Positions 5,741 through 40,602 of a DNA stretch of 62,519 nucleotides are shown piece after piece. The notes beneath the pieces are model-generated. The model searched no databases, was not told the DNA's origin, and was given only the letters and a program-made list of their open reading frames with translations. The stretch spans positions 1 to 62,519 of the forward strand of contig JAGCVQ010000070.1 of NCBI GenBank assembly GCA_017962275.1, in the 5' to 3' direction. The first letter of the stretch is position 1, and every line of letters starts with the position of its first letter. Both the position numbers and the translations under genes were made by a program. This DNA comes from Bacteroidales bacterium (GTDB taxonomy: Bacteria > Bacteroidota > Bacteroidia > Bacteroidales > WCHB1-69).

Positions 5741-5803
5741 AGAGTGCAGTGAAGGGGAGGATTCGCAATGAAGAATTCACGAGACAACTAAAACACCAAT
5801 AAT

Positions 5804-8800
5804 ATGAAAAAGAAACTTTACACCATCATCACGCTGCTGCTGCTCTGCGGATGGGCGCAGGCGCAAACCGACAGTCTGCAGGTTGATTCGACGGCGTGTG
5901 TCGCTCCGCAGTTCACCGTGTACACAACCGGAACCGATGCCGTTTTCAACTGGTACGAAACCGACACCATCACGGAAACCGACACCTTCCTGATCATCTA
6001 TCGTCTCCTTTCCGGGACACCACAAGACAATGTGTACGAGATGGTTACCGGGAATAACGGGGAGTTCGGCGAAGCGGTCATTTCGGGACTCCTTCCCCTG
6101 ACGGAATACCTCGCATGGATGGCCAAGATTTGCAGCGGCGACACCTCTGCTGTGGATTCGGCCACGCTCTTCACCACAGGCTGCGGCACGTTTATGACCC
6201 CATTCGAGGAACATTTCAGTTCGAGCCAGCACTGCTGGACCCTCGACCCTGCCTTCTCTTATTCAATTGACTACGTTTACACCACAAATTACACTTACTC
6301 TTCCGGATATTTCGACACGGTGCGGGCGGTATCCCCTGTGATTGATGTCTCCGGACTTAGCCATCCATATCTGAAATTCTCCCGCATTCAGAACGATGCG
6401 AATGGAATGCATAAGGATCTGGCTCTGTATTATCGTGAATATGAAGAAGATGAGTGGCATGATTTAGGAACGTTCTTCTCAACGACAAGTTCCACCGATT
6501 GGAAGACCGACTCGCTGGCGATTCCTTCGCAATCGGCCACGCTGCAGCTCGGATTTTTCTCCATAGCACATGAAAACCAGCAGTTTCCACGCATTTCGTT
6601 GGACGACATCTACGTCTATGACGGCACGGACTGTCCGCCTGCCACCGACCTGATGTTGTCCGAAATCAGCACGGACACCGCTTTCATTCGCTGGATCAAC
6701 TGCGACACGGTGGACTATCAAGTGCGGTACAGGATTCTTCCCGACACGAACTGGATTTACACAAATGGGATGGATGGAACTGCCATTATCACCCCGGTCG
6801 AAATCCTCTCCAACTATGAGGTTCAAGTGTCGCCGTTATGCGATCTGGTAGAATGGGTCTCTTGCACGTTCAGCACGGGCTGCGGCACGTTTCTGGCCCC
6901 CTTTGAGGAACATTTCGGTTCGAGCCAGCACTGCTGGACCCTCGATCTGGCGTTCTCGAATGGGGTGGACCACATCTACACCTCGAACTACGTGTCTCCC
7001 ACCGTCAGCACGAACTACGGCTATATCGACACGGCGCGGGCCATTTCGCCGGTCATTGACGTATCCGCACTGGCCAACCCTTATCTGAAATTCTCCCGAA
7101 CTCAGACTGAATCCAACGGAACGCACAAGGATTTGGCTTTGTATTACCGTGATTATGAAGAAGATGAGTGGCACTACTTGGGAACTTATATCACGCCGGC
7201 AGGATCATTGAATTGGAAAACCGACTCGTTAGCCATTCCTTCGCATTCCGCCACGCTGCAACTCGGTTTCTTCTCTATACAGCGCGAAAACGCCCAACAG
7301 ACCGCTATCCATTTGGACGACATCTATGTCTATGACGGGCCGGAATGTCCCCCCGCCTCCGACCTGGCATTGTCCGGCTTCAGTGACGACACCGCCTTCA
7401 TCCACTGGATTGCAGACGCCAACACACCTTACCATGTGCGCTACCGCACACTCCCCGGAAACAACTGGGTTAATGTCAACGACTTAGACGGCATGGCGCT
7501 TATTGAGCCCCTCGCTCCGCACACGAATTACGAAGTGCAGGTCTCGCCCTTCTGCGACTTGGAGACGTGGTCATCCTGCACCTTCACCTCTCCCGCCGGT
7601 GCGGTCAATCTGCCCTACTCCACCAACTTTGCCGGAAGTGCCGACGAGGGCTGGGAATTCAACAACGGCACGTGTCTGAACCATTGGAAGATTGGTGATC
7701 CCGGCGACTACCTACAAATACCCAACGCGCTGTTTGTCACTTTCAATGACACGGTGGCAGGCTATGGACAGGACAACTTCTACACCACTATCACAGCGTT
7801 CAAGAGGTTCAATATGAGCGACATATCCACGGTGAACATCGAGTTTGATGTCCTCTGCGGCGGCAACATCCAGAGTTATACTCCGAAGGATTACCTGAAA
7901 GTCTTTTTTGCGCCCGCTACAGAAGAATACCCCTCTTCCGAAAACAGCCTTGCGTATGCGGAACCCACTGCCTCACTTTACGCAATGGATTTCCAAGATT
8001 ATTTGAGCCAAACGGGCGATACAAATTACCGTTACAAGCTGAATCTGACGCAAGGTAACGTACTGCATATCAGCGTGGAGATGCCCAATCCAACGCCTAA
8101 CGGCGAGTCGAAGCTGGTGTTTGTGTGGCACAACGACCACAGTTACTACAGCGATGTTCAACCGGCCGCCATCATCACCAACCTGCACGTGTGGCAGAAC
8201 GACTGCGATGTGGTTTCCCAGCTCAATGTGTTTGATATTGTTGGGCAATCTGCTCTGGTCTCCTGGGTGCCGCCGGCAAACGCCCCGACCATCGAGCTTC
8301 AGTACAAACTGTACGCCATGGATTGGTCTGATCAGAGCGTGACCACCATCCTGTTGGACTCCAACTACCTGATTCTGCAAAATCTGCTGAACGACACCGC
8401 TTACGATGTGCGGGTCCGGGTGGATTGCGGAGACACGCTGGGCGTGGGCACTTGGCGCTATGTCTCGTTCATCACAAGCTGTGGTATCGTGGTCACGGAC
8501 AGTACCCCTTACATCGAAAATTTCAACTATGTAGGTCTGGCACCGGAATGCTGGAACCTCACGGTAAACCCGTTGCATTCCTGGTATAAGGCATGGTATT
8601 CCCAAGCCCTGGCCCATGACAACCACGCCAACAATGATTGGGGAGAGGAGTGTCCGGCGCTAACCCCGACGATGGATATTTCCGCGGTGTCCAACCCCTA
8701 TCTTAAATTCAAACACGAACTGGGTGGCATTCGGGTGGCTTCCCGGACGAGTGCCCTGAGCCCGTGGCAGGAGTTGGCCACTTTCTCTGGAAACGCCATC

Positions 8801-11197
8801 GATTCCGTGCCGTTGCCTTCTTCCAACATCGTACAGATTGCCTTTTATCCCGTGAATAACGGCCATGTATATTTGGATGACGTGACGGTCTATAACGGCC
8901 CGTCGTGTGTGCCGATGGGCAGCGTGACGGTGGAAGATGTGACCGCCCATGCCGCGGCGATTTCCTGGGTCGGCAACCACGATAACGGGTATGTAATCCG
9001 CTATCGGGATATTTCGGACACGGCATGGACGTACTTCACCACGACGGATACCACCTACATTATCAATGGGTTAGAGGATTCGCACACCTACATCGTGGAG
9101 GTTTCGGGCGACTGCAATGAGCCGAACTGGATGGCGGTTCAGCTCTCCACGTCGCTATCTACAGCCACATTGCCCTACTTCACGGACTTTGCGCCCACTT
9201 CCGACCGCGGCTGGCTGCTCAACAACGGCGACTGTGCCAACTATTGGACCATGGGCACCTACAACGCCGCCGATAATGTGCATGCCCTGTTTGTGACCAA
9301 CGACGGCAGCACCCCGGGATACAACATCTCGAGCTCCTCGGTGGTGACGGCGGAAAAGCTCTTCGAAGTGGCTGGCGTTGACTCCATCACCGTGGAATTC
9401 GACGTGCGCATCGGAGGGGAGAAGGATTATGATTACATCAAGTTGTTTGTGGCACCGGAATACGTTGAATATCCCGCCTCATCCGTAGTAAACAGTTACA
9501 ATCCGGGATATCCGGAATACGCTTCAAGGACTTACTCATTCTATGCATTCAACTTCTCCCCGTTCTACAGCCTTATGTCCGAACAGAACTATTTGTCCCC
9601 ATACATTTTCAACAGAACAGCGGGTGACGGTTTTGTACACATTTCCGCCGTGATGCCCAATCCGATTGCCAACAACCTGGTTTACACCCGCGCCAAGGTG
9701 GTCTTCCTTTGGAAAAACGACTATTCGGAGGGCAGCCAACCCGGCGCGATCATCACCAACGTCTCGGTGCGGGACAACTCGTGTACACCCGTGAGCAATC
9801 TGACCGTCTCAAACGTACTTTCCACCACGGCCGACATCACGTGGACACCGAGCAGCGGCGGCGAAACCGACTGGGTGGTAGAGTGCAAAGAGAGCTCGGC
9901 CCTGACCTGGAACCAGATTCTGGTGTCCGGAACCCCGGCCCTCTCGCTGTCGGGTCTCAACCCCTCCACGGAGTATGAAGTCCGCGTGAAGACCGACTGC
10001 GGCAACAGCCAGTCGATTCCGCAAAGTGTCACCTTCACCACCACGCACTGCGACTATTACTGTCCCTACACCTTCATCCTGTATGACAATCGCGGTGACG
10101 GGTGGAATGGCAACGCGGCGGTGCATGTGATGCAACAGGGGTCGGACATTGCCACCTTGGTCGCCATCAACCACCATTTGCAGAACACGCCGACCTATGA
10201 CACAGTGATGGTGGATCTGTGTCACGGCGAAGACATCACCTTGCAATGGACATGGGGCATCTGGTGGATGGAAGATGGGGTGACCGTGCTCGATCCCGAC
10301 GGCAACCAGATCTATTCGGTTTTCGGAATGACCAACCACGACTCCACGCTGACAACGTTCACAGCGAGTTGCCCGTTCGTCTCCCCGACGGTCGTCACCG
10401 ACAGCGCGAGCAACATCACGCAGACGGGGGCGGTGCTGCACGGGCACATCGAGGACTATGGCGATTTGCCCATCCTCGACCGCGGCTTCGAATGGAAACC
10501 GCTCTATGCCAGCAACTTCACAGCAGTGACAGCCACGGGAGACACCCTGTCGCATCCGCTCAGCGGTCTCTCTCCGAACACCGATTACGTCTATCGTGCC
10601 TTCGCAACCACCCTGTCGGGCACCACCTACGGCGACGACCTCGCATTCACCACGTTGAATGGGGCGACGACTTGTCCCGCGCCCACCGACCTGCATGTAA
10701 CGGATTCATCCAGCAACACCCTCGCCATCGAGTGGACCGAGAACGGCGACGCGGAGCAGTGGAACATCCAGTACCGTGCCGGCAACGGCGTGATGAGTTC
10801 CGACGTCTCCTACGCCACCTCCTACCTCATCACCGACCTTCAACCCAACACCGAATATCAGATTCAAGTACAATCGGTCTGCGGTGTCCAGACCAGCGAA
10901 TGGACACCCGTTGCAACAGCCTCCACGACCACAGGGTTGCGCAACCACGACCGATCCATCATCGTATATCCTAATCCCGCAAACAATGTGGTCTGTGTAA
11001 AATACCTAGTGAATAATAATGAATTTAGTGGCGGGATTCAGGTATGCGATGTATATGGGAAGACCGTTGTAGAGACGGGGCACGCCCCGTCTCTACCGGA
11101 AACCCGTATTGACATTTCGGGATTGTCCGCCGGCATGTATTTCGTGCGGGTGACAACGGAAGAAGGGGTTATCACAAAGGCGTTTGTGAAACAATAA
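5804..11197 (+). CDS. Large secreted FN3-repeat protein with T9SS type A sorting domain (paralog of 932..5578)
   Basis: Signal peptide, FN3 repeats, internal tandem duplication, YPNPA...GMYFVRV...KAFVKQ C-terminus. Confidence 0.9.
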   Translation: MKKKLYTIITLLLLCGWAQAQTDSLQVDSTACVAPQFTVYTTGTDAVFNWYETDTITETDTFLIIYRLLSGTPQDNVYEMVTGNNGEFGEAVISGLLPLTEYLAWMAKICSGDTSAVDSATLFTTGCGTFMTPFEEHFSSSQHCWTLDPAFSYSIDYVYTTNYTYSSGYFDTVRAVSPVIDVSGLSHPYLKFSRIQNDANGMHKDLALYYREYEEDEWHDLGTFFSTTSSTDWKTDSLAIPSQSATLQLGFFSIAHENQQFPRISLDDIYVYDGTDCPPATDLMLSEISTDTAFIRWINCDTVDYQVRYRILPDTNWIYTNGMDGTAIITPVEILSNYEVQVSPLCDLVEWVSCTFSTGCGTFLAPFEEHFGSSQHCWTLDLAFSNGVDHIYTSNYVSPTVSTNYGYIDTARAISPVIDVSALANPYLKFSRTQTESNGTHKDLALYYRDYEEDEWHYLGTYITPAGSLNWKTDSLAIPSHSATLQLGFFSIQRENAQQTAIHLDDIYVYDGPECPPASDLALSGFSDDTAFIHWIADANTPYHVRYRTLPGNNWVNVNDLDGMALIEPLAPHTNYEVQVSPFCDLETWSSCTFTSPAGAVNLPYSTNFAGSADEGWEFNNGTCLNHWKIGDPGDYLQIPNALFVTFNDTVAGYGQDNFYTTITAFKRFNMSDISTVNIEFDVLCGGNIQSYTPKDYLKVFFAPATEEYPSSENSLAYAEPTASLYAMDFQDYLSQTGDTNYRYKLNLTQGNVLHISVEMPNPTPNGESKLVFVWHNDHSYYSDVQPAAIITNLHVWQNDCDVVSQLNVFDIVGQSALVSWVPPANAPTIELQYKLYAMDWSDQSVTTILLDSNYLILQNLLNDTAYDVRVRVDCGDTLGVGTWRYVSFITSCGIVVTDSTPYIENFNYVGLAPECWNLTVNPLHSWYKAWYSQALAHDNHANNDWGEECPALTPTMDISAVSNPYLKFKHELGGIRVASRTSALSPWQELATFSGNAIDSVPLPSSNIVQIAFYPVNNGHVYLDDVTVYNGPSCVPMGSVTVEDVTAHAAAISWVGNHDNGYVIRYRDISDTAWTYFTTTDTTYIINGLEDSHTYIVEVSGDCNEPNWMAVQLSTSLSTATLPYFTDFAPTSDRGWLLNNGDCANYWTMGTYNAADNVHALFVTNDGSTPGYNISSSSVVTAEKLFEVAGVDSITVEFDVRIGGEKDYDYIKLFVAPEYVEYPASSVVNSYNPGYPEYASRTYSFYAFNFSPFYSLMSEQNYLSPYIFNRTAGDGFVHISAVMPNPIANNLVYTRAKVVFLWKNDYSEGSQPGAIITNVSVRDNSCTPVSNLTVSNVLSTTADITWTPSSGGETDWVVECKESSALTWNQILVSGTPALSLSGLNPSTEYEVRVKTDCGNSQSIPQSVTFTTTHCDYYCPYTFILYDNRGDGWNGNAAVHVMQQGSDIATLVAINHHLQNTPTYDTVMVDLCHGEDITLQWTWGIWWMEDGVTVLDPDGNQIYSVFGMTNHDSTLTTFTASCPFVSPTVVTDSASNITQTGAVLHGHIEDYGDLPILDRGFEWKPLYASNFTAVTATGDTLSHPLSGLSPNTDYVYRAFATTLSGTTYGDDLAFTTLNGATTCPAPTDLHVTDSSSNTLAIEWTENGDAEQWNIQYRAGNGVMSSDVSYATSYLITDLQPNTEYQIQVQSVCGVQTSEWTPVATASTTTGLRNHDRSIIVYPNPANNVVCVKYLVNNNEFSGGIQVCDVYGKTVVETGHAPSLPETRIDISGLSAGMYFVRVTTEEGVITKAFVKQ
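11069..11096. repeat. 28-bp GTAG-type palindrome inside the CDS (read as VETGHAPSL)
   Basis: GTAGAGACGGGGC-AC-GCCCCGTCTCTAC. Confidence 0.9.
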
Positions 11198-11278
11198 AAA
11201 AATGAAGAATGAAGAATGCATAATGAAGAATAAATATTCCGCATTCTTCATTTTTCATTCTTCATTCTACATTATGCA

Positions 11279-12028
11279 TTATGCATTTTGCATTAAAACG
11301 TATCCCACCTCCTTGAACCCATACGCCTCCATCGAACCATCCTCATGTTCCAGCACCAGCCGTCCGAAACGGTCGATATCGCGGATAATTCCGGTAATCT
11401 GCTCTCCTTGAACGAGATACGGATGAAGTTCATTGAGACGGTAAAGGTGGGACAGGTACTCTTCGCGGAGGGCGGAAGCGTGCTCAAAACTCAGCAACGG
11501 ACGGCGTTCGCGCAAGACGCCGAGATACTCCTCCATCAGCGCAACGACATCGTGACGTTGGCCGGTTTCGAGGAACAGGGAGGTCGGATTCGGGATGTTT
11601 TCGGGAAACTTTTCCTCGTTGACGTTGATGCCGATGCCCGCGACGGTGAAGTCGAGGCGACCTCCGGAAACAGAATGTTCGGTGAGGTCGCCGGCAAGTT
11701 TGCGGTCGTGGACGTACATGTCGTTCGGCCACTTGATGAGGACTTCGGGAACGTACTTGGCGAGGAACTGGCGGGTGGAAGTCGCGAACCAGAGGTTGAA
11801 GACGAACTGGTCGGCGGCGGCGAGTCCTGTCTCGAAATAGATGCTGGTCAAGATGTTACAACCTCGCGAGCTATGCCACGTGTTCGTGCCCGCACCACGC
11901 CCGGCGGTCTGGAAGTCGGCACGGACAACGTAGAGGTCCGGCAGCGACTGCCCGTCAATCCGTTTTTCTCTGGCGAAATTCATCAGCCAGGCGTTGGTGG
12001 ATTCTGTTTCGATTAGATGTTGATTCAT
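11279..12028 (-). CDS. birA: Biotin--[acetyl-CoA-carboxylase] ligase (monofunctional, no HTH)
   Basis: ESTN, QTAGRG, KWPND, KLAG, GIGINV motifs; start at MNQHLI (12028). Confidence 0.9.
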   Translation of the reverse strand: MNQHLIETESTNAWLMNFAREKRIDGQSLPDLYVVRADFQTAGRGAGTNTWHSSRGCNILTSIYFETGLAAADQFVFNLWFATSTRQFLAKYVPEVLIKWPNDMYVHDRKLAGDLTEHSVSGGRLDFTVAGIGINVNEEKFPENIPNPTSLFLETGQRHDVVALMEEYLGVLRERRPLLSFEHASALREEYLSHLYRLNELHPYLVQGEQITGIIRDIDRFGRLVLEHEDGSMEAYGFKEVGYVLMQNA

Positions 12029-12031
12029 TCG

Positions 12032-12050
12032 GCAAAAATAGTATTTTTGC
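12032..12050. promoter_or_regulatory. Back-to-back TAnnTTTG (-7) promoter boxes for birA and the divergent gene
   Basis: GCAAAAATA-G-TATTTTTGC palindrome contains TATTTTTG on both strands. Confidence 0.7.
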
Positions 12051-12080
12051 AGCTTGAATTTGAAAATCGAAAAAAGAGAC

Positions 12081-12776
12081 ATGAAAAAGCTGAGCATCAT
12101 ATTGGGAATAGCCCTGATTTCTGCGGTGACGCTGTTTTCCTGCAAGGACGAAAGCGGCATTTATGTGGAGCAATTATACACCAACGCACAAAAAGAGTTG
12201 GCCATCAAGGAATGTTTGAGGACCTCTGCTGATTCTGCAGTGAGCCACCTCTGTGTGGACGACGGCTTTTACAGCTACCACGATGCGGACTACCGGATCG
12301 ATTATGATTTGCTGCAGGCTTCCCTCTTCGACACATTAGAGAACCATGGTTACGGCTACCTGTCCGACACGCTGATCCTCCGTACCAACCGTCTGGCCGA
12401 AAGCTGCGGCGGACAGGTGCTCTCCGCCTTGAAGACAGCCATCGATTCATTGACGATCTCTGACCTCGACGCATTGGTGAAGGGCAGTCCCGACGCCATC
12501 ACCCGTTATTTCACGCTGATGAAGTACACCGAGCTCAAGTCCGCCTTCCAGACCCCGGTTTCCATCCGCATGAGTCTTTACGGCGTGAACGCGACTTGGA
12601 ACGAGATGGTGCAGCATTACGCACAATACACCACGACCCCGCTGAACTTCGACATCCAGAACTACATCGTGGAGGAGATGTTGGACGGCATCCTGACGGA
12701 GATGACCATTGAAGAAGGGCTCATCCGCACCGATTCCACGCACCGCAGCGAGAAGACGAAGATGCTGGGGGAATAA
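12081..12776 (+). CDS. DUF4197-like lipoprotein
   Basis: Lipobox LFSC; AIKECL..SADSAV, NRLAE, LDGIL..M..EE..IR resemble DUF4197. Confidence 0.65.
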   Translation: MKKLSIILGIALISAVTLFSCKDESGIYVEQLYTNAQKELAIKECLRTSADSAVSHLCVDDGFYSYHDADYRIDYDLLQASLFDTLENHGYGYLSDTLILRTNRLAESCGGQVLSALKTAIDSLTISDLDALVKGSPDAITRYFTLMKYTELKSAFQTPVSIRMSLYGVNATWNEMVQHYAQYTTTPLNFDIQNYIVEEMLDGILTEMTIEEGLIRTDSTHRSEKTKMLGE

Positions 12777-12785
12777 TCCGAGTTT

Positions 12786-12813
12786 GTAGAGACGTTGCGT
12801 GCAACGTCTCCAC
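12786..12813. repeat. GTAG-type palindrome
   Basis: GTAGAGACGTTGC-GT-GCAACGTCTCCAC. Confidence 0.8.
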
Positions 12814-12856
12814 GGTGGAAAAAACAGACAATTATTAACATTTAAAAATCATCCAT

Positions 12857-14089
12857 ATGAGAAAAGACAAACTCTTCAACGGCAAAACGTTAGCGATTCT
12901 TTCCGGCGGCGGCGACACCCCGGCCATCAACTCCAGCATCGAGGCGGTGCGTAACCGCGCCTCCATGCTCGGCTTCCGCGTCTATGGCGTGCTCAAAGGC
13001 TGGAAAGGCCTGCTCGGCGACGGCGATATCGTGGATCTGACCAATATCCCTTATAACGGTCTCTACGGCGGCACCGCGCTGCTCTCTTCCCGCACCAACC
13101 CCTTCCCGAGCAAGAAGAGTCCCGAAGACCGCTCCCAACAAATCCTCCGCAACATCGAGCGCTACAAAATCGATGTGCTCGTGACCATCGGCGGTGACGA
13201 CACCAACGGAGCGGCCAAGAAGATGTACGAAACTTACGGCATCCCCGTCATCGGTTTCCCGAAGACCATCGACAACGACCTGCGCACCCGTACGTATCAC
13301 CACTACAACGGCCAGCAGCACGAGACCGTGCTCTGTCCGGGATTCCCGTCCGGCGCCATGGCCGTGAAGAAGCTCACCAGCAAGCTGCACACCACAAACG
13401 AGTCGCACCAACGCATCATGGTGCTTGAAGTGATGGGGCGCGATGCAGGTTGGCTCACCGGTTCTGCCTCCTTCGGCGGTGCCCAGATGGCTCTCGTTCC
13501 CGAAGTGGAGATGACCAAAGAGCGCAAGGAGTTCTTCTTCGAATCCGTGAAAGAGATGTACATGCGTTCCCCGAAACACAGCCTCATCATCGCCGTCTCC
13601 GAAGGCGTGCGTTGGTGGGATGACGAGAAACAGGAACTCGGCATGGTGTATGCCAGCTCTGACCTCGACGAGTACGGTCACCCGCGCTTCGGCGGCGTGA
13701 GCGGTGTCATCGCTTCCGAAATCAACAAGCGCCTCGGCATCGAGGCCCGCGGTCAGATTTCCGGCTACATCCCGCGTTCCGGCAAGTGCTACGAGTACGA
13801 CCGTCGTCTGACCTCCACCCTGGCCGACAAGGTGGTCGATCTGCTGCTCCGCGAGGACTACGGCAAGATGCCCGTACTGCGCGACATCGTGCCTTACGAC
13901 GAGCTTGAGGAGTTCCACACCGACGCCATCGAGATGGGCAACATCGGCAACTTCCCGCTGCCCGCCGCCTACTACGACCCCAACAAGTTCATGTTCACCG
14001 ATCAATATACCGACTTCCTGAGCAACATCATCGGTGCCCCGTACCGCATGGAGTTCACGCAGAAGTTCCCGATCGTGATTCCGGAATAG
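12857..14089 (+). CDS. pfkA: 6-phosphofructokinase family protein, probably PPi-dependent
   Basis: SGGGDTPAIN, IGGDDT, PKTIDND, EVMGRDAGWL. Confidence 0.9.
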   Translation: MRKDKLFNGKTLAILSGGGDTPAINSSIEAVRNRASMLGFRVYGVLKGWKGLLGDGDIVDLTNIPYNGLYGGTALLSSRTNPFPSKKSPEDRSQQILRNIERYKIDVLVTIGGDDTNGAAKKMYETYGIPVIGFPKTIDNDLRTRTYHHYNGQQHETVLCPGFPSGAMAVKKLTSKLHTTNESHQRIMVLEVMGRDAGWLTGSASFGGAQMALVPEVEMTKERKEFFFESVKEMYMRSPKHSLIIAVSEGVRWWDDEKQELGMVYASSDLDEYGHPRFGGVSGVIASEINKRLGIEARGQISGYIPRSGKCYEYDRRLTSTLADKVVDLLLREDYGKMPVLRDIVPYDELEEFHTDAIEMGNIGNFPLPAAYYDPNKFMFTDQYTDFLSNIIGAPYRMEFTQKFPIVIPE

Positions 14090-34028: not shown

Positions 34029-34075
34029 TCTAAACTCTAAACTCTAAACTCTAAACTCTAAACTCTAAACTCTAA
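34029..34075 (-). repeat. (GAGTTTA)n heptamer array at the patatin stop codon
   Basis: About six perfect TAAACTC units on the + strand. Confidence 0.9.
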
Positions 34076-36393
34076 AAATCGTATCCTACACTGAAATAGA
34101 ACCCCACCTTGTTGAAGGCACTGTTCCAATGGAGGTTCGCCATGATCGGCCCTCTTTTGCCATTGTATCCGAATTGCAAACCCGCCGCATAAACGGGAGA
34201 TGCCATTTTTTTGAGGGAGGCGCCATCATGCATGGCCGCCCCAATCATCGACAAATATATCTTCTTACCTACCTTGAAGCGCAATTCCAAATCAATGGTG
34301 GTCAACAATCGTTCGCAAGCCCGCACAGTATTATAACCGATGAATTGTATCTGTTGGTCGTAATATCGACCGGGCATAGTCCCGCCAGCATAGTTGGCCA
34401 TAAAGGAGTTTTCGTTTTCCTCGCCGAAGATATAACGCCCGTTGGCCGAAGCCAGGATGGCGAAGAAGTTACAGCACGGTATGACGCCATGCACACTGGC
34501 CGCCGCATAGTGGGTCCTGTCGAAATCATAGTCGTACGAGGCCTTCACCCGAAAGCCGTTGTCGGGGAAATAGCGGCTATTCTCATGGTCGTAGATAAAT
34601 CTCAGATAGACGTACGGGAAAATGTTCTTCCAATTCCAGGGCGAGGGTTGGACGGGGTCCATCTTCGGACGTATTTCCTTTCGGTAGGGCATGTATTCCA
34701 AGCGGACTCCCATATTCAAATCGACTTGGCTCCACCGCGTGCCCGCGATATAGACCTTCAGTTCATTGCGCCAAAGTTGCTCATGATATTGGAAATTGTA
34801 CTGATGGTCCTCGGTGCCGAGCATATTGCGATAGAGGGTTTTGAAAGATGCGCCGAACTTGGGACCCCTCTTCGGCAAGTAGTACCACTCCACTTTCAAG
34901 TATGGCGACATGGAGAGCCGTACCGTGGCGTCGAACAGGGAGCCGAAAAGCTTGTTCCTGCCAATACCCAGGTTAATGAGGGCAGAGAACCACTCCTCCG
35001 AATCGAGCCGCAGTCCGACGCCAATGGAGTTGGGCGGACGTTTCTCGCAGTGGAAGATCACTTTGTAGCCATCGGACCCGTCGCTTTCCAACCGGTAGGT
35101 CACCTTCGAAAAGGCCATGGTACCATAAACGATGGCTTGGAAGAGTTCCAAGTCCTTCTTGTCATAATACTCGTTTAATTTGACGCGGACCTTCCGGTCG
35201 ATGTAGTCCTCTTCCACCTCCCTCACACCTTCGTAATCCACACCCGTGATTTTCACCTCCGTCTCGCCTGTATTGACGGCCTTTGGTTTGTGTAACTCGC
35301 GGCCGGTGTTGCCCACGAGTTGCACGATACTGTCCAGCTCGCGCTCGTGCTTGGTAGCCTCTTTATATCCGCGCTGAATCAGTGTGGCAATCTCCTCCGT
35401 GCCGAAACTCAGCATCCCGAAGCCCGAGATGTCGGGCGTGATATAGACCGTGGCGTTCCCCACATTGCGGTTGTGCGCTTCCAAACCGCCCGAATACTGA
35501 GCCGTCTGCATCAGAATGTCGGCCACATTGTTCACTTTCTGATAGTCGCGGGGCATGGTCATCTCCACTCCGATAATGATGTCGGCGCCGGCGGCCACCG
35601 CCACGTCCGTCGGGAAATTGTTCTTCGTGCCGCCGTCGGAGAGAATCATGGAATCGACACGCACCGGCTGAAAATAGCCCGGGATCGACATGGAAGAACG
35701 CATCGCCTCGATCAGCGGTCCCGATGTCCAATGCTTCTCCTTTTGGGTCACGATCTCCGTGGCCACACAGCAATAAGGCGTCGGCAGATCCATGAAGTCC
35801 ATGTCTTGCTGATAATTGACCGACAACGCACTCAGCATATTATAGATGTTAAGACCATAGAGGAAACCTGACGGAAGGCTTTTCAGAAACTCCAGTTCCG
35901 TAAAAGGGACATCAATACAGTAGGTTCCCTTGTACATCTTGCGGGTGTAGGTGTAGAAGTCCATGGGGATGTTGTCGCTCATCATGACGTTCCAGTCGAT
36001 GGAGCGCACGATGGAGTCGATTTCCATGGACGAATAACCCATGGCGTAGAGACCGCCCATGAGTGCCCCCATGCTGGTGCCTGCCACGAAATCAATCGGG
36101 ATACCCTTCTCCTCGATGTACTTCAGCACCCCGATGTGCGAAGCCCCTTTCGCGCCGCCGCCCGCCAGCACGAGCGCCACCGTCGGGCGATGCTCCTTCC
36201 GGCGAATATCGGCCATCCGTTCCTGCATCTTCGCAAAGAAAACCGAATCGGACTTCGGGTCGTAGCTGATGTTGACCAACCGGTCTGTTTGAGCGAACAA
36301 ACCGCCTGCCGCCCAAGCCATAAAAAGAGCGATAAGAGCACTTTTCATAATGCTCGCCGTCCACTTCTCTCGCGTTATCTTCCGTTTTTTCAT
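34072..36393 (-). CDS. Patatin-like phospholipase with POTRA-like and C-terminal beta-barrel domains (PlpD-like)
   Basis: GGGAKG, GTSMG, DGG; C-terminal SVGYDF; start may be 36348. Confidence 0.88.
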   Translation of the reverse strand: MKKRKITREKWTASIMKSALIALFMAWAAGGLFAQTDRLVNISYDPKSDSVFFAKMQERMADIRRKEHRPTVALVLAGGGAKGASHIGVLKYIEEKGIPIDFVAGTSMGALMGGLYAMGYSSMEIDSIVRSIDWNVMMSDNIPMDFYTYTRKMYKGTYCIDVPFTELEFLKSLPSGFLYGLNIYNMLSALSVNYQQDMDFMDLPTPYCCVATEIVTQKEKHWTSGPLIEAMRSSMSIPGYFQPVRVDSMILSDGGTKNNFPTDVAVAAGADIIIGVEMTMPRDYQKVNNVADILMQTAQYSGGLEAHNRNVGNATVYITPDISGFGMLSFGTEEIATLIQRGYKEATKHERELDSIVQLVGNTGRELHKPKAVNTGETEVKITGVDYEGVREVEEDYIDRKVRVKLNEYYDKKDLELFQAIVYGTMAFSKVTYRLESDGSDGYKVIFHCEKRPPNSIGVGLRLDSEEWFSALINLGIGRNKLFGSLFDATVRLSMSPYLKVEWYYLPKRGPKFGASFKTLYRNMLGTEDHQYNFQYHEQLWRNELKVYIAGTRWSQVDLNMGVRLEYMPYRKEIRPKMDPVQPSPWNWKNIFPYVYLRFIYDHENSRYFPDNGFRVKASYDYDFDRTHYAAASVHGVIPCCNFFAILASANGRYIFGEENENSFMANYAGGTMPGRYYDQQIQFIGYNTVRACERLLTTIDLELRFKVGKKIYLSMIGAAMHDGASLKKMASPVYAAGLQFGYNGKRGPIMANLHWNSAFNKVGFYFSVGYDF

Positions 36394-36442
36394 ACCAACG
36401 CCGCTATAGATGAAACAATGTGCAAAAGTATACTTTTTTCGG

Positions 36443-36562
36443 CTAAAACGTAGTGTAAAGACAGGAAATGTCGCCCTCGGAACGGACCGTGAGCAACAGC
36501 AGCATCAACGCAAACACCGCCGTGACTATCAACACTTTAACGATTCTCTTTTTCCAAAACAT
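36443..36562 (-). CDS. dltX: 39-aa DltX-like acyl-shuttle membrane peptide
   Basis: MFWKKRIVKVLIVTAVFALMLLLLTVRSEGDISCLYTTF: single TM helix, C-terminal xxYxxF; AAGGAG upstream; overlaps the dltD-like 3' end. Confidence 0.7.
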   Translation of the reverse strand: MFWKKRIVKVLIVTAVFALMLLLLTVRSEGDISCLYTTF

Positions 36563-37646
36563 ACTCCTTGATTTTCTGATAGATAAAAGTCGCCCCGTAA
36601 CTGGTGTGATGCTGCCAGTCCTCAAACACGCCCGGCACGGTCGAAAGATCCGAACAGTCGATGTATTGCGCATTCTCTTCTTCCAAAATGCGGAGAATGT
36701 TCGCCGGAATCTGCTGGATTTTCGGCAAGTCCTCCGGATGCACTTTCGCGAAAGCAATTTGGTTGTACGGTCCGACCACGAACGTGATGTCCACCTGCCG
36801 CACCTTGCACAGACGAATCATCGTGCGCAGCTCCTCGTAGCGGTACTCCTCCTCGGGATGCGGATGCAACGTGTAGGAATGGACATCAAAACTTTTCGCG
36901 ACATTGAGGGCATATTGGTAACGGCTACTGTCCGGTTTCGGCACGGAAGCGGCGGAAACATACGCCTTCTGCGGTTGTATCAACGTCAGACCAGCGTAAA
37001 ATCTCGAAGAATCGAAGTCAAAAATCAGATCCTGATAGTATTTTCTGCGGATCCGGTCCACCCAGTATTCCAACCCATCGTTCAGTTTTTCCGTCCAGAT
37101 CACTGGCTTCAGATTGGTCTTCAAGACACTGTTAACTTCTTGATTGTCATCCTGATTCGCTTTCCGATAGGCGGTATAGGAAACATAACGGTGGAAATAA
37201 TCCAGATTGCCCGTGGCGAGTTTCCCGCACCAATACGAAGGGTTGATATAGTACAACACCTTGACATTCTTGATATTGTCATTCCCCAGAATCAACGGAA
37301 AGTACGTACACGCGGTTCTGCCGGCACCGGCAATCACCGAAAAGCGGCAAGACAGTGAGGTGTCGGCATTCAGAAAATCGTAGTAGTTGCCTTTGTTGCG
37401 GGGATTGCTCTCGGACGTGCCCAACACCAAATAACCGTCGTTCTCCTTAATACTATTCAGCAACAAATTGGTATATAGCGGGTTATTGTCCCGAAGATCC
37501 TGATGACGAATCGTGTAGAGCTGTCGGTCCGGCCCTGAAGCATGGAACGACGGGATGAGACAGGCAACCGTCATCCAGAAAAGGAGCGCCACGAGTGCCG
37601 TCACCCCTATCCACGCCAGATTCTTCAATGTATAGAGCTTTTTCAT
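36537..37646 (-). CDS. dltD: DltD-like extracytoplasmic SGNH-type acyltransferase
   Basis: N-terminal TM, LGTSE (cf. GSSE), INPSYW (cf. SPQWF), DWQH (DxxH); ATGA overlap with the MBOAT stop. Confidence 0.7.
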   Translation of the reverse strand: MKKLYTLKNLAWIGVTALVALLFWMTVACLIPSFHASGPDRQLYTIRHQDLRDNNPLYTNLLLNSIKENDGYLVLGTSESNPRNKGNYYDFLNADTSLSCRFSVIAGAGRTACTYFPLILGNDNIKNVKVLYYINPSYWCGKLATGNLDYFHRYVSYTAYRKANQDDNQEVNSVLKTNLKPVIWTEKLNDGLEYWVDRIRRKYYQDLIFDFDSSRFYAGLTLIQPQKAYVSAASVPKPDSSRYQYALNVAKSFDVHSYTLHPHPEEEYRYEELRTMIRLCKVRQVDITFVVGPYNQIAFAKVHPEDLPKIQQIPANILRILEEENAQYIDCSDLSTVPGVFEDWQHHTSYGATFIYQKIKEYVLEKENR

Positions 37647-38842
37647 CCGAACAACAACTTGAACATTATCCACAATTTATCGAGAGGATAGTTGAAAAAC
37701 ACCCAGCCGACAGTCACGAAAAGGAACGTGCCAACGATGCCGGACACCTTCCGCAGTTTGGTCATCCCCTTGACGGGTTTTCCGTACGTAAAGAGCTTAT
37801 ATACAGAGAGTCCCACGCCATGCCAGAGACCCCAGATCACAAAGTTGACGGTGCTGCCGTGCCAGAGGCCGCAGACGAGGAAGGTGACGAGGTAGGCTGT
37901 GACCGAGACCACCATCCGGTATCGGGCAATCGGCAGTCGGTTCAGCAGCGAAATCACCGGTTTGAAAACATAAATCCGCAAAAAAGTGGAGAACGTGATG
38001 TGCCAACGCTTCCAAAACTCCGAGATATTGGTGGAAAAGTACGGATTGTCGAAGTTCTCAGGGGTTCGAACGCCCATCATGTAGGCCATGCCGATGGCCA
38101 TGTCGCAATAGCCGGAGAAGTCGATGTAGATGTAAAGCGAATAGAGCAGCGCCGCCGAGCAGACTGCGCCCCACGGCCCGAGATTCGGCAGAAGCACCTC
38201 ATAGTCAATCGCATACGGCTTTATCAACGGCACGATCAGCAGGGCTTTCACCGCCCCGATGAAGATTCTGCCCACGCCGGCCATCAGCATCCGCCGGTTG
38301 AAACGCACGCGGGTCGTGGTCAGCCAGTAGTGGAAGTTGTTGAACGTGTCGATGGGACCGGCCATGAAGGTCGGGAAGAAGAAGAGGTAGTTGAGGAAGG
38401 TCAGGAAATCACGGCTGCGGAGGGTGCCTTTGTAACTCTCCACCAGCCAGTGGACGAGGCGGAACAGGATGTACGACAGCCCGATTTTCTCCACCGAAAG
38501 GAAGTGCTTGCCAAGAATGTCCGTCCACCAGCTGCCAAGCCACGACTGCACCAGCGAGTAGTTGCGGACGGAGAAGAGGAGAATCAGCAGGGAGAGCGCC
38601 ATCGCCAGCACCCATCCGGATTTGCGTTTCTGGAGCAGGAGCCCCGCGCCGTAGGCCAACAGGGCCAGCAGCGAGAGCAGGAACAGCGACTTCCAAGAGA
38701 CGATATGCGTCAGTATCAGGATGTTGCCCCCAACCAGCAGCAAATTGTCGAGCCAACTCCTCTTGATCATCCACCTGCAGAACACAAACAGGAGGACGAA
38801 GAGGATAATGGTGAAAAAGAGTTCGTAGCTGGTGAACAACAT
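37643..38842 (-). CDS. dltB: MBOAT family O-acyltransferase (DltB/AlgI-like)
   Basis: GLSY, FFPTFMAGPID, DFSGY.DMA, PENFDNPY, FWKRWHIT, GLWHG. Confidence 0.85.
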   Translation of the reverse strand: MLFTSYELFFTIILFVLLFVFCRWMIKRSWLDNLLLVGGNILILTHIVSWKSLFLLSLLALLAYGAGLLLQKRKSGWVLAMALSLLILLFSVRNYSLVQSWLGSWWTDILGKHFLSVEKIGLSYILFRLVHWLVESYKGTLRSRDFLTFLNYLFFFPTFMAGPIDTFNNFHYWLTTTRVRFNRRMLMAGVGRIFIGAVKALLIVPLIKPYAIDYEVLLPNLGPWGAVCSAALLYSLYIYIDFSGYCDMAIGMAYMMGVRTPENFDNPYFSTNISEFWKRWHITFSTFLRIYVFKPVISLLNRLPIARYRMVVSVTAYLVTFLVCGLWHGSTVNFVIWGLWHGVGLSVYKLFTYGKPVKGMTKLRKVSGIVGTFLFVTVGWVFFNYPLDKLWIMFKLLFG

Positions 38843-38916
38843 ACAGACAAATTACATCTACACGGCAAAAATACAAAAAATGTCTCTTTGCACACTGAAA
38901 TCAATAATCTTTGTGA

Positions 38917-39003
38917 GGCCGCCGACAGTTCCGGATGTCATCTGACCGGGGCCAACTTGGTTGATTCTTGCCATCGCTATCTGTTTTAGAACTGTTCACG
39001 GCC
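38917..39003 (-). ncRNA. Candidate ~90-nt structured small RNA or leader
   Basis: Begins right after TATCTTTG box (39005-39012); ends pair GGCCG..ACAGTTC / GAACTGT..CGGCC. Confidence 0.35.
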
Positions 39004-39060
39004 GCAAAGATACATTTTATTCCCTACGTTCCATCGCCCTTGGCAAGGGGTTCCCAAGGA

Positions 39061-39184
39061 GATGCCATACTGTTGCCATACTGTAGCCATAGTGTAGCCA
39101 TACTTAAGAGTATGGCATCAGTATGGCATCACTATGGCAACACTATGGCAACACTATGGGTATGGCGATACATCAGTATGGCAC
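39061..39184. repeat. Inverted arrays of 11-bp units (GCCATACTGTT-like x4, then ATCAGTATGGC-like x5)
   Basis: Direct reading; centre TAAG at 39105-39108. Confidence 0.85.
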
Positions 39185-39360
39185 CGGGGAGGGAGTAAAG
39201 GTTGACCTCTTCCCCAGCTCCTCTCCAAAATGGAGAGTGGTGGTCCCGATTACCCCTAACAGTTCCTCACATTGCAGTCGGTGGACTCCTCCCCCATTTG
39301 GGGAAGGCGGGGTGGGGGTAAAATAACATAGAGAAGGGGAGGCCGGGTGGGGGTAACACC

Positions 39361-40602
39361 TCACCCCCCGAAGTCATCGTAATGGATCATCTCCTTCGGG
39401 ACGCCCAGACTGTCGAGCATCTTCAGCACGGCCTGCAGCATGAGGGGCGGACCGCAGATGTAGTATTCGATGTCTTCGGGGGCGGGGTGCGACTTCAGGT
39501 ACTGCTCGAAAATCACGTTGTGGATGAAGCCGGTGGGACCGGTCCAATTGTCCTCGGGAAGCGCGTCGGAGAGGGCGATGTGGAACTCGAAGTTGTCGTG
39601 TTCCGCCGCGAGTTGCTCGAACTCGTCCATGTAGAACAGCTCCTTGCGCGAGCGACCGCCGTACCAAAAGGTGGTCTTCCGCCGCGTGCCCTTCACCTTG
39701 AACTGGTCGAAGATGTGCGAACGCATGGGCGCCATACCCGCGCCGCCGCCGATGAACATCATCTCGCGGTCGGTGTCCTCCACGAAGAAGTCGCCGTAAG
39801 GTCCCGACACAAAGACCTTGTCGCCGGGCTTCAGACTGTAGATGAACGATGACGCCACGCCGGGATTCACCTTCTCCATGCGGCCTTTCTTGCGGTTGAA
39901 CGGCGGGGTGGCGATGCGCACGTTGAGCATCACGATGCCGTTCTCCGCCGGATAGTTGGCCATCGAATAAGCCCGCACGGTGGGACTTCCGTTCTTCATC
40001 CGCAGGTCGAAAAGCCCCATCTTCTGCCAATCGGCGCGGTAGGGTTCCTCAATGTCCATATCGCTGAAATTGACCGTGCAGGCGGGGATGTCGATCTGGA
40101 TGTAGCCGCCGGAACGAAAATCCATCACCTCGCCGTCGGGCAGTTGCAGCACCAACGCCTTGATGAAGGTGGCCACATTGCGATTGGAAACGACGGTACA
40201 CTCCCATTTCTTGATGCCGAAGAAGCTCTCGGGAATCTCAATCTCCATGTCCTCGCGCACCTTCACCTGGCAGAAAAGCCGGTAATGGTCGGCGGCCTCC
40301 TTGCGGGAGATGTGCGCCAACTCGGTGGGCAGGATCTCGCCGCCGCCGGAAAGCACCTTGCCCCGACACGTACCGCACGATCCGCCCCCGCCGCACGCCG
40401 ACGGCACAAACACCTTCCCGTCGGCCAACGCCTGCAACAACGTACATCCGCGCTCATGTTCAATCTCCTTCTTCCCGTTGATGCTGATCTTCACCGATCC
40501 CCCAGGAATCATCTTCTTACGGGCGAACAACAGCAAACCCACTAATAACCAGATGATTACCAGGAAGATCACGATGGCCGCTATGATTGTCAGTATGGTC
40601 AT
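39361..40602 (-). CDS. nqrF: Na(+)-translocating NADH:quinone reductase subunit F
   Basis: [39 protein letters not shown]. Confidence 0.95.

Follow-up and report, generated by a model that had tools for sequence, protein, structure and literature searches.

A candidate tyrosine acyl relay encoded by an MBOAT, DltD-like and microprotein gene cassette in a rumen Bacteroidales genome

Three overlapping genes and their proposed function

We analysed a 62,519-nucleotide (nt) contig (JAGCVQ010000070.1; the whole stretch is referred to here as the window) from an uncultured rumen Bacteroidales metagenome-assembled genome (MAG; 94.31% complete, 105 contigs) for the function of a cassette of three overlapping genes encoding a membrane-bound O-acyltransferase (MBOAT), a DltD-like SGNH-type transferase and a micropeptide of 39 amino acids (aa). 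We hold with moderate confidence that the three products form an inner-membrane complex in which a DltX-type tyrosine relay carries an acyl group, probably supplied by acyl-coenzyme A (acyl-CoA), to an acceptor in the cell envelope. The original prediction, made from the nucleotide sequence of the window, had described a dlt-like triad of three overlapping open reading frames (ORFs), the first two joined at an ATGA overlap, in a Bacteroidales genome. All three frames and the overlap were recovered on the minus strand at the positions given below, and the Bacteroidales origin is supported by the record titles of related loci.

38842..37643, minus strand: MBOAT acyltransferase, 399 aa, short, C-terminus ...KLLFG, without a fused acyl-shuttle motif
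37646..36537, minus strand: DltD-like SGNH-type transferase, 369 aa, with a membrane helix at about residues 7-30 followed by an extracytoplasmic domain with Ser78, Asp343 and His346
36562..36443, minus strand: micro-ORF (proposed tyrosine acyl shuttle), 39 aa, predicted single helix, tail GDISCLYTTF
37643..37646, minus strand: ATGA overlap of the MBOAT stop codon (TGA) with the DltD-like start codon (ATG), read directly in the sequence
36537..36562, minus strand: 26-nt overlap of the DltD-like 3' end with the micro-ORF 5' end, in different frames

Both overlapping start codons are conserved: ten homologues all share M1 and K2 of the DltD-like protein, and the micro-ORF ATG lies at the same place, within the Tyr-Val codons of the DltD-like C-terminus, across the rumen loci.

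Conservation of the micro-ORF

The sequence of the predicted peptide comprises a lysine- and arginine-rich N-terminus, a hydrophobic stretch and the tail GDISCLYTTF, from which a single membrane helix with its N-terminus on the inside would be expected. The proposed 39-aa frame was found to be kept beside the two enzyme genes in every testable locus, i.e., in 11 of 11 same-genus loci, 28 of 28 loci from species-representative genomes (uncultured Bacteroidales or Bacteroidia MAGs, mostly ruminant-labelled), 39 of 39 testable rumen-type metagenome loci and 23 of 23 testable distant environmental loci, with one further environmental locus stopping at a contig edge. These sets, which may overlap, add up to 101 testable loci beyond the window, and the same three-gene architecture was present in all 101, down to ~30% identity of the DltD-like protein. 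Among the 29 sequences made up of the window and the genome loci, the frame is 39 codons long except at L035 (38 codons, with the Met one codon later); all 29 end in DISCLY-x-x-F, and TAA, TAG and TGA are all used as stop codons. A variant tail, GDIPCLYTTF, occurs in one rumen metagenome locus. In the distant clade, where the DltD-like protein is ~30-35% identical to that of the window, the micro-ORFs are 37-41 aa long and have tails such as GDIEYIYANF, SIQYVYANF, DIVYLYANF and DIQYLYAGF.

Across 30 peptides of both clades, invariance is limited to Y36 and F39, with D31 and I32 close to it, and the sequence of the helix varies freely; the conserved part is the tail D-I-x-[CY]-[LIV]-Y-x-x-F, with rumen-clade peptides reading CLYxxF and those of the distant relatives Y[ILV]YA[NTG]F. 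Over tail codons 28-39, diversity summed to 1.79 for first, 1.41 for second and 6.44 for third codon positions, a 3.6- to 4.6-fold excess at the third. This excess points to selection on the protein and thus to purifying selection on the tail. In L071, L076, L077, L081 and L086, furthermore, the stop-to-stop frame opens at the Met itself, and the product therefore cannot be longer at these five loci. As judged from its conservation, the micro-ORF is a real, selected gene. The alternative, that the 39 codons stay open by chance or are a remnant that is not translated, would suit a frame that is short, overlaps the upstream gene, has no conserved Shine-Dalgarno (SD) sequence and has no RNA contig on it (which is no evidence of absence), but we assign it next to no probability in view of the presence of the frame in all testable loci of two clades, the third-position excess in the tail and the five loci in which the open frame begins at the Met.

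The hexamer AAGGAG, which the original prediction had noted upstream of the micro-ORF, sits 1 nt before its ATG and encodes Lys-Glu of the DltD-like C-terminus. It is not a conserved ribosome site, as evidenced by the presence of an SD-like 4-mer at most 20 nt upstream in only 10 of the 29 sequences, and translational coupling via the overlap is a more plausible arrangement than a ribosome site. The peptide, described as hidden in the original prediction, is not so everywhere: of eight peptides looked up, five have an identical record in public protein collections, either without a name or as 'hypothetical protein'. The codon for Cys34 (36455-36457) specifies a residue that is invariant in the rumen clade, with TGT/TGC synonymous changes, at the first motif position, where DltX and PatA have Phe; this Cys is a small unexplained twist of the rumen clade. 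At L021 (G021:C10), the reading frame of the DltD-like gene switches near residue 336 to that of the micro-ORF; the resulting open frame of 409 aa terminates in the peptide tail and lacks the DWQH segment of the transferase. Either a pseudogene or an error of assembly could account for this locus.

Fold and distribution of the DltD-like protein

Profile searches recognized the middle protein as DltD in part. Pfam DltD (PF04914) matched at 33.4 bits (cut-off 22.7), over residues 268-363 only, and the DltD equivalog model TIGR04092 gave 20.9 bits (cut-off 150). An AlphaFold2 model built on 41 sequences (mean predicted local distance difference test score (pLDDT) 93.4, predicted template modelling score (pTM) 0.91) retrieved DltD chains at all of Foldseek ranks 1-10 (E about 1e-8, template modelling (TM) score 0.50-0.56). 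VIA-align placed it on four DltD entries over 302-308 residues, with Z scores of 23.0 for 6pfx (root-mean-square deviation 4.1, 306 residues aligned), 22.6 for 6o93, 22.0 for 7dxm and 21.7 for 3bma, whereas generic SGNH esterases reached Z 13.0 at most, with ~170-185 residues aligned (172 for the best). On the evidence of this model, the protein has the DltD fold that had been proposed for it, in which the SGNH core carries the helical insert specific to DltD.

The catalytic motifs named in the original prediction, GTSE and DWQH, are present and conserved in the homologues. Residues G76-T77-S78-E79 (GTSE), G107-A108-G109, N135-P136, N295 and H346 are invariant in the 41 sequences, down to 18% identity, and D343, the first residue of DWQH (D343-H346), is nearly invariant (at least 90% of the 41 sequences); by this alignment, the catalytic Ser and the Asp and His of DxxH are retained. 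Most proteins of SGNH fold are hydrolases and the generic VIA-align hits are esterases, so the protein might be thought to act chiefly in deacylation, as an esterase, in which case the trio would not be a forward relay. We regard this as highly improbable: the gene is always translationally coupled to those for the MBOAT and the shuttle peptide, and the protein is membrane-anchored and has DltD transferases as its nearest structures.

The DltD-like family is small, comprising 117 clusters at E <=1e-3 among 1.84 billion representatives. Ten distant representatives were looked up, of which four were named, all as 'hypothetical protein', and the NCBI records among them are Flavobacteriales MAGs. 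Within its genus the protein was present in 11 of 24 genomes, and 16 genomes representing 16 other families of the order had none. Against 401 genomes, namely an evenly drawn set of 400 from Bacteroidota and that of the window itself, its profile matched the window's genome and otherwise gave three weak C-terminal matches only; Pfam DltD, run on the same 401 genomes, matched the window's genome and one other, G147.

The short MBOAT and its paralogues

G147 (same class as the window's genome, 100% complete, one weak DltD-like profile match) contains a complete Dlt-type operon on the minus strand of L133 at 7405-11651 (G147:C1 ~1675400-1679650), with the following genes:

Gene 1: carrier protein, PP-binding 26.8 bits
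Gene 2: DltD, Pfam 161.3 bits over its full length; TIGR04092 145.8 bits against the cut-off of 150
Gene 3: 52-aa ORF ending NFIYQQF, between the DltD and MBOAT genes
Gene 4: short MBOAT, DltB model 251 bits
Gene 5: DltA-like ligase, 413.5 bits

Dlt-type operons therefore do occur in Bacteroidota, and the DltB of G147 served as the one bona fide DltB sequence for comparison with the window MBOAT. The latter is a member of the MBOAT superfamily (Pfam PF03062, 88.5 bits; cut-off 27), and its H281 (RWHITFS) and H328 (GLWHG) are invariant in 30 homologues and align with the WH motifs of the DltB chain 8jem_A. The only solved relatives found by sequence were DltB chains (8jem and 6bug, E 7e-35). 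On the DltB model TIGR04091 the protein scored 194.5 bits over its full length, under the 375-bit cut-off, compared with 161.6 and 141.5 bits for fused-motif MBOATs of the same genome and 251 bits for G147 DltB. BLASTP gave 128-146 bits against the fused-type MBOATs of its own genome and 108 bits against G147 DltB, an affinity judged from pairwise scores with that single comparator. Thus, the placement of the protein in the MBOAT family is borne out, whereas its placement with DltB in particular is not, the score lying under the equivalog cut-off and the BLASTP affinity nearer the fused type.

Four other MBOATs are encoded in the genome (473, 481, 493 and 623 residues, stop to stop), and all four end in PFIYFRF or PFIYFQF, i.e., in a fused acyl-shuttle hexapeptide. 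The window MBOAT is ~73 residues or more shorter than these paralogues and has no such tail; given that the tail is fused in the paralogues and missing here, the peptide appears to supply in trans what the paralogues carry in cis. Close homologues are named AlgI by JGI and 'MBOAT family protein' by NCBI. At two environmental loci, L079 (3200-5700) and L084 (6288-8700), a second MBOAT (472 aa, with a fused FIYFQF tail) and a 326-aa ORF come directly after the split triad, the split and fused designs lying side by side.

Predicted three-chain complex

The three chains were modelled together, each with its own alignment and with the peptide as the scored partner, and the model scored 0.75, 0.75 and 0.74 on a calibration that is only roughly valid for a job of this kind; the best control reached 0.36 and the other two 0.00. 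The pLDDT of the partner was at least 73 and contact agreement between runs at least 81%. In the benchmark, 58 of 80 solved complexes attained the mark, as did 2 of 110 mismatched pairs. The model packs peptide residues 12-28 on the DltD-like anchor helix (13-25) and on MBOAT helix 194-204. Its most confident contacts are predicted between helices in the membrane (peptide 16-24 with DltD-like 13-24 and MBOAT 194-202), and tail residues 32-37 and 39 are modelled in contact with MBOAT residues 123, 160-162, 238, 241-245 and 327-329, the last of these being the segment of the invariant His328. The peptide of the proposed triad is thus predicted to bind both partners and to sit between them.

Proposed relay and acceptor

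In the relay that we favour, the MBOAT would draw on a cytoplasmic thioester, most likely a common acyl-CoA (by default acetyl-CoA), and would load its acyl group via His328 onto Tyr36 of the extracytoplasmic tail of the peptide, which would provide in trans the tyrosine hexapeptide that is fused to the other MBOATs of the genome. The loaded tail would swing to the DltD-like enzyme and acylate Ser78 (acting with Asp343 and His346), and this enzyme would hand the acyl group to a hydroxyl or amine of a membrane-proximal periplasmic acceptor. To our knowledge, the Bacteroidota host is a diderm without teichoic acid. Since the transferase is membrane-anchored in the predicted complex and the cassette lies among housekeeping genes, a locus-specific capsule is a less likely acceptor than a common envelope molecule close to the membrane. 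The original prediction had raised a possible effect on cationic-peptide resistance; transfer of an uncharged acyl group would give no reason to expect one.

Contacts between membrane helices are the ones predicted with most confidence, as might be the case if the peptide were only a structural subunit joining the MBOAT and the DltD-like protein while the acyl group passed directly from the MBOAT to the transferase or the acceptor. This seems to us quite unlikely, as it is the helix that varies freely and the tail that is conserved, with Y36 and F39 as the only invariant residues; moreover, the tail is modelled against the His328 segment, and the equivalent Tyr is a proven acyl carrier in DltX and PatA (PMC12148441, in its account of these proteins). 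A bolder form of the favoured relay, which we offer as speculative and rather unlikely, is that a carrier-independent DltX-type relay acylates a core envelope molecule of the diderm cell (peptidoglycan, a lipid-linked glycan, lipid A-core or a membrane lipid) and that the rumen-clade Cys (S-C-L-Y) would be a second acyl-accepting nucleophile or a redox switch; within the sections of the DltX and PatA literature covered, a Cys two residues before the Tyr is not described in either role.

Several points weigh against the favoured relay. The first position of the motif is Cys (rumen clade) or Tyr (distant clade) and not Phe. The window peptide did not match Pfam DltX (PF12459) at E up to 10, nor was there a match at the locus in the genome scan; among 30 relatives only two matched (best E 0.03), and the Pfam and equivalog model searches placed the peptide in no family. 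Of the FIYNEF-type DltX motif cited in the original prediction, the Tyr and the terminal Phe are universal in these peptides. Pfam DltX also misses the 52-aa ORF of the G147 dlt operon, however, and is therefore a weak test in this phylum. The score of the three-chain model may reflect only likeness, since complexes of the DltB-DltD-DltX type have already been solved (8jem, 8jes, 8jf2), and the calibration is loose for three chains with their own alignments. Metatranscriptome run X1 yielded a single 289-nt contig on the MBOAT gene (38336-38624, three differences) plus short matches at the conserved 38084-38131, and none of its contigs lay on the DltD-like gene or the peptide, contig data of this kind showing neither expression nor silence. 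Finally, with the genome 94.31% complete and in 105 contigs, an unlinked ligase may have been missed, and outside this cassette the only known split design is that of the carrier-dependent Dlt pathway, such that a carrier, e.g., a housekeeping acyl carrier protein (ACP), could still take part.

Search for a ligase and a carrier

No dltA or dltC had been seen in the window, and none was found over cut-off when the search was extended to the whole genome and to 100 related loci. The best scores of the DltC model TIGR01688 on the genome were 16.8 and 16.6 bits (cut-off 52.35), and both of these ORFs adjoin fabF-like and rnc-like genes, lying upstream of them, and correspond to acpP. The DltA model TIGR01734 gave no match over its cut-off of 559.85 on the genome; its best scores (280.5 and 259.9 bits) fell on the two adenylation domains of a 2439-aa ORF resembling a nonribosomal peptide synthetase (NRPS) on another contig. 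In addition, tblastn with the ACPs, the NRPS and five adenylate-forming enzymes of the genome (E <=1e-3) found none of them in the 100 related loci (849,711 bases). With no ligase or carrier gene accompanying the cassette, we take a common acyl-CoA to be the most probable donor, acetyl-CoA being the default choice. The NRPS-like open frame lies at G000:C45 ~5800-13400, unlinked to the triad, and near-identical acpP-fabF-rnc segments occur on G000:C71 (35600-37800) and G000:C38 (700-2850), which could be a duplication or strain heterogeneity in the assembly.

These results bear on the kind of group transferred, which the original prediction had left as either an aminoacyl or an acyl group. True Dlt-type aminoacylation, i.e., transfer of D-alanine or another amino acid with the ligase and carrier encoded elsewhere or a housekeeping ACP borrowed, would be in keeping with the split MBOAT and microprotein layout and the DltD-specific fold (Z 23.0), both of which are Dlt hallmarks, with the existence of a complete dltC-dltD-dltX-dltB-dltA operon in a Bacteroidota genome (G147) and with the adenylation domains of the NRPS-like ORF. 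We nevertheless judge it unlikely. Neither DltA nor DltC was found over cut-off in the genome, where both carrier matches are acpP beside fabF; the 100 related loci hold no carrier or ligase homologue; no neighbouring gene is conserved in the loci compared; the DltD-like protein reached 20.9 of the 150 bits set for the DltD equivalog; and the MBOAT is nearer the fused type (128-146 bits) than the DltB of G147 (108 bits), which favours plain acylation from acyl-CoA over aminoacylation. Of the two outcomes originally considered, plain acylation is thus the favoured one, and aminoacylation is weakened by the affinity of the MBOAT.

Neighbouring genes and transcription signals

The triad is flanked in the window by the following genes:

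39361-40602: nqrF, upstream of the triad
34072-36393, minus strand: patatin-Omp85 gene, downstream (Pfam Patatin 108.6 bits, Omp85_2 30.1 bits)

The downstream gene, which starts 49 nt past the micro-ORF stop on the same strand, encodes a patatin-like phospholipase fused to an Omp85-type barrel (773 aa in total); it is not conserved beside the triad at other loci. The flanks of the triad vary by locus and are of a housekeeping kind (NqrF-like, nitroreductase, ThiD-like, ThiE-like, DNA polymerase I, a LytTR regulator, patatin-Omp85), and in a gene-cluster comparison only the MBOAT and the DltD-like protein were constant. As a clue to the donor or acceptor, the compared flanks showed no glycan or capsule theme. 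A scan of 36200-39500 for promoters and terminators, based on sigma-70 patterns that are unsuited to Bacteroidota, returned one promoter-like and two terminator-like signals, fewer than the means of 2.4 and 3.3, respectively, in shuffled sequence, and so gives no guide to how the genes are transcribed.

Novelty and implications

Searches of the literature on DltX in Bacteroidetes and on DltD or DltB in Bacteroidota found no description of this triad, within a coverage that did not extend to supplements or to Schultz et al. 2023. The tyrosine acyl-shuttle mechanism is already established, and the new part is a split, non-Dlt version of it, without a ligase or carrier, in diderm Bacteroidota. 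The occurrence of the split relay without ligase or carrier at ~100 loci suggests that the split design is tied neither to carrier-protein donors nor to teichoic acid. The analysis offers a function for a widespread 'hypothetical' gene of 37-39 aa and for MBOATs labelled AlgI, and it points to a modification of the envelope in about half of the searched genomes (11 of 24) of an abundant rumen genus.

Comparison with known systems

In the account given in PMC12148441 for DltB/DltX/DltD and PatA/PatB, the acyl group passes from the MBOAT His to the Tyr of a C-terminal hexapeptide, then to the SGNH Ser and on to the acceptor. The same 2025 article states, where it treats the non-Dlt MBOAT/SGNH pathways, that a DltX-like microprotein is absent from these, the motif being fused onto the MBOAT instead. 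The DltX of Bacillus thuringiensis is described as a 48-aa protein with a basic N-terminus, one helix and the tail FIYNEF, in which Y45 is universally conserved (PMC5541007, as far as its description of the peptide goes). For the phylum of the window, dltA-D are listed in Parabacteroides distasonis in an annotation table of PMC12996385.

The triad resembles the Dlt core of Bacillota in its short MBOAT without a fused motif, in its separate microprotein (~40-50 aa, predicted single helix) with a Tyr fourth from the end and a terminal Phe, such that Y45 of 48 is in the register of Y36 of 39, and in its membrane-anchored transferase of DltD fold with Ser and DxxH, for all of which a ternary membrane complex is predicted here. 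It differs from that core in the lack of a detected DltA ligase and DltC carrier in its genome and the related loci, in gene order (B-D-X here, X-A-B-C-D there), in DltB and DltD equivalog scores far under the cut-offs, and in a peptide that is unmatched by Pfam DltX and whose motif starts with Cys or Tyr. The operon of G147, from the same phylum, shares with the triad a short MBOAT, a DltD and a small ORF, there with the tail FIYQQF, but has a ligase and a carrier, and its DltD is only ~20% identical, locally, to the DltD-like protein of the window.

With the PatA/PatB and AlgI-type systems, the triad has in common an MBOAT paired with an extracytoplasmic SGNH transferase, and an acyl-Tyr relay without a carrier protein (both the relay and its independence of a carrier being proposals here). 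The likeness extends to sequence, as the window MBOAT is BLASTP-nearest to the fused type and a tail of the distant clade, YIYANF, compares closely with the FIYANF given for NgPatA in PMC12148441. In those systems, however, the motif is borne on two extra helices of the MBOAT, whereas in the triad it is the product of a separate gene and the partner enzyme has the DltD-specific fold.

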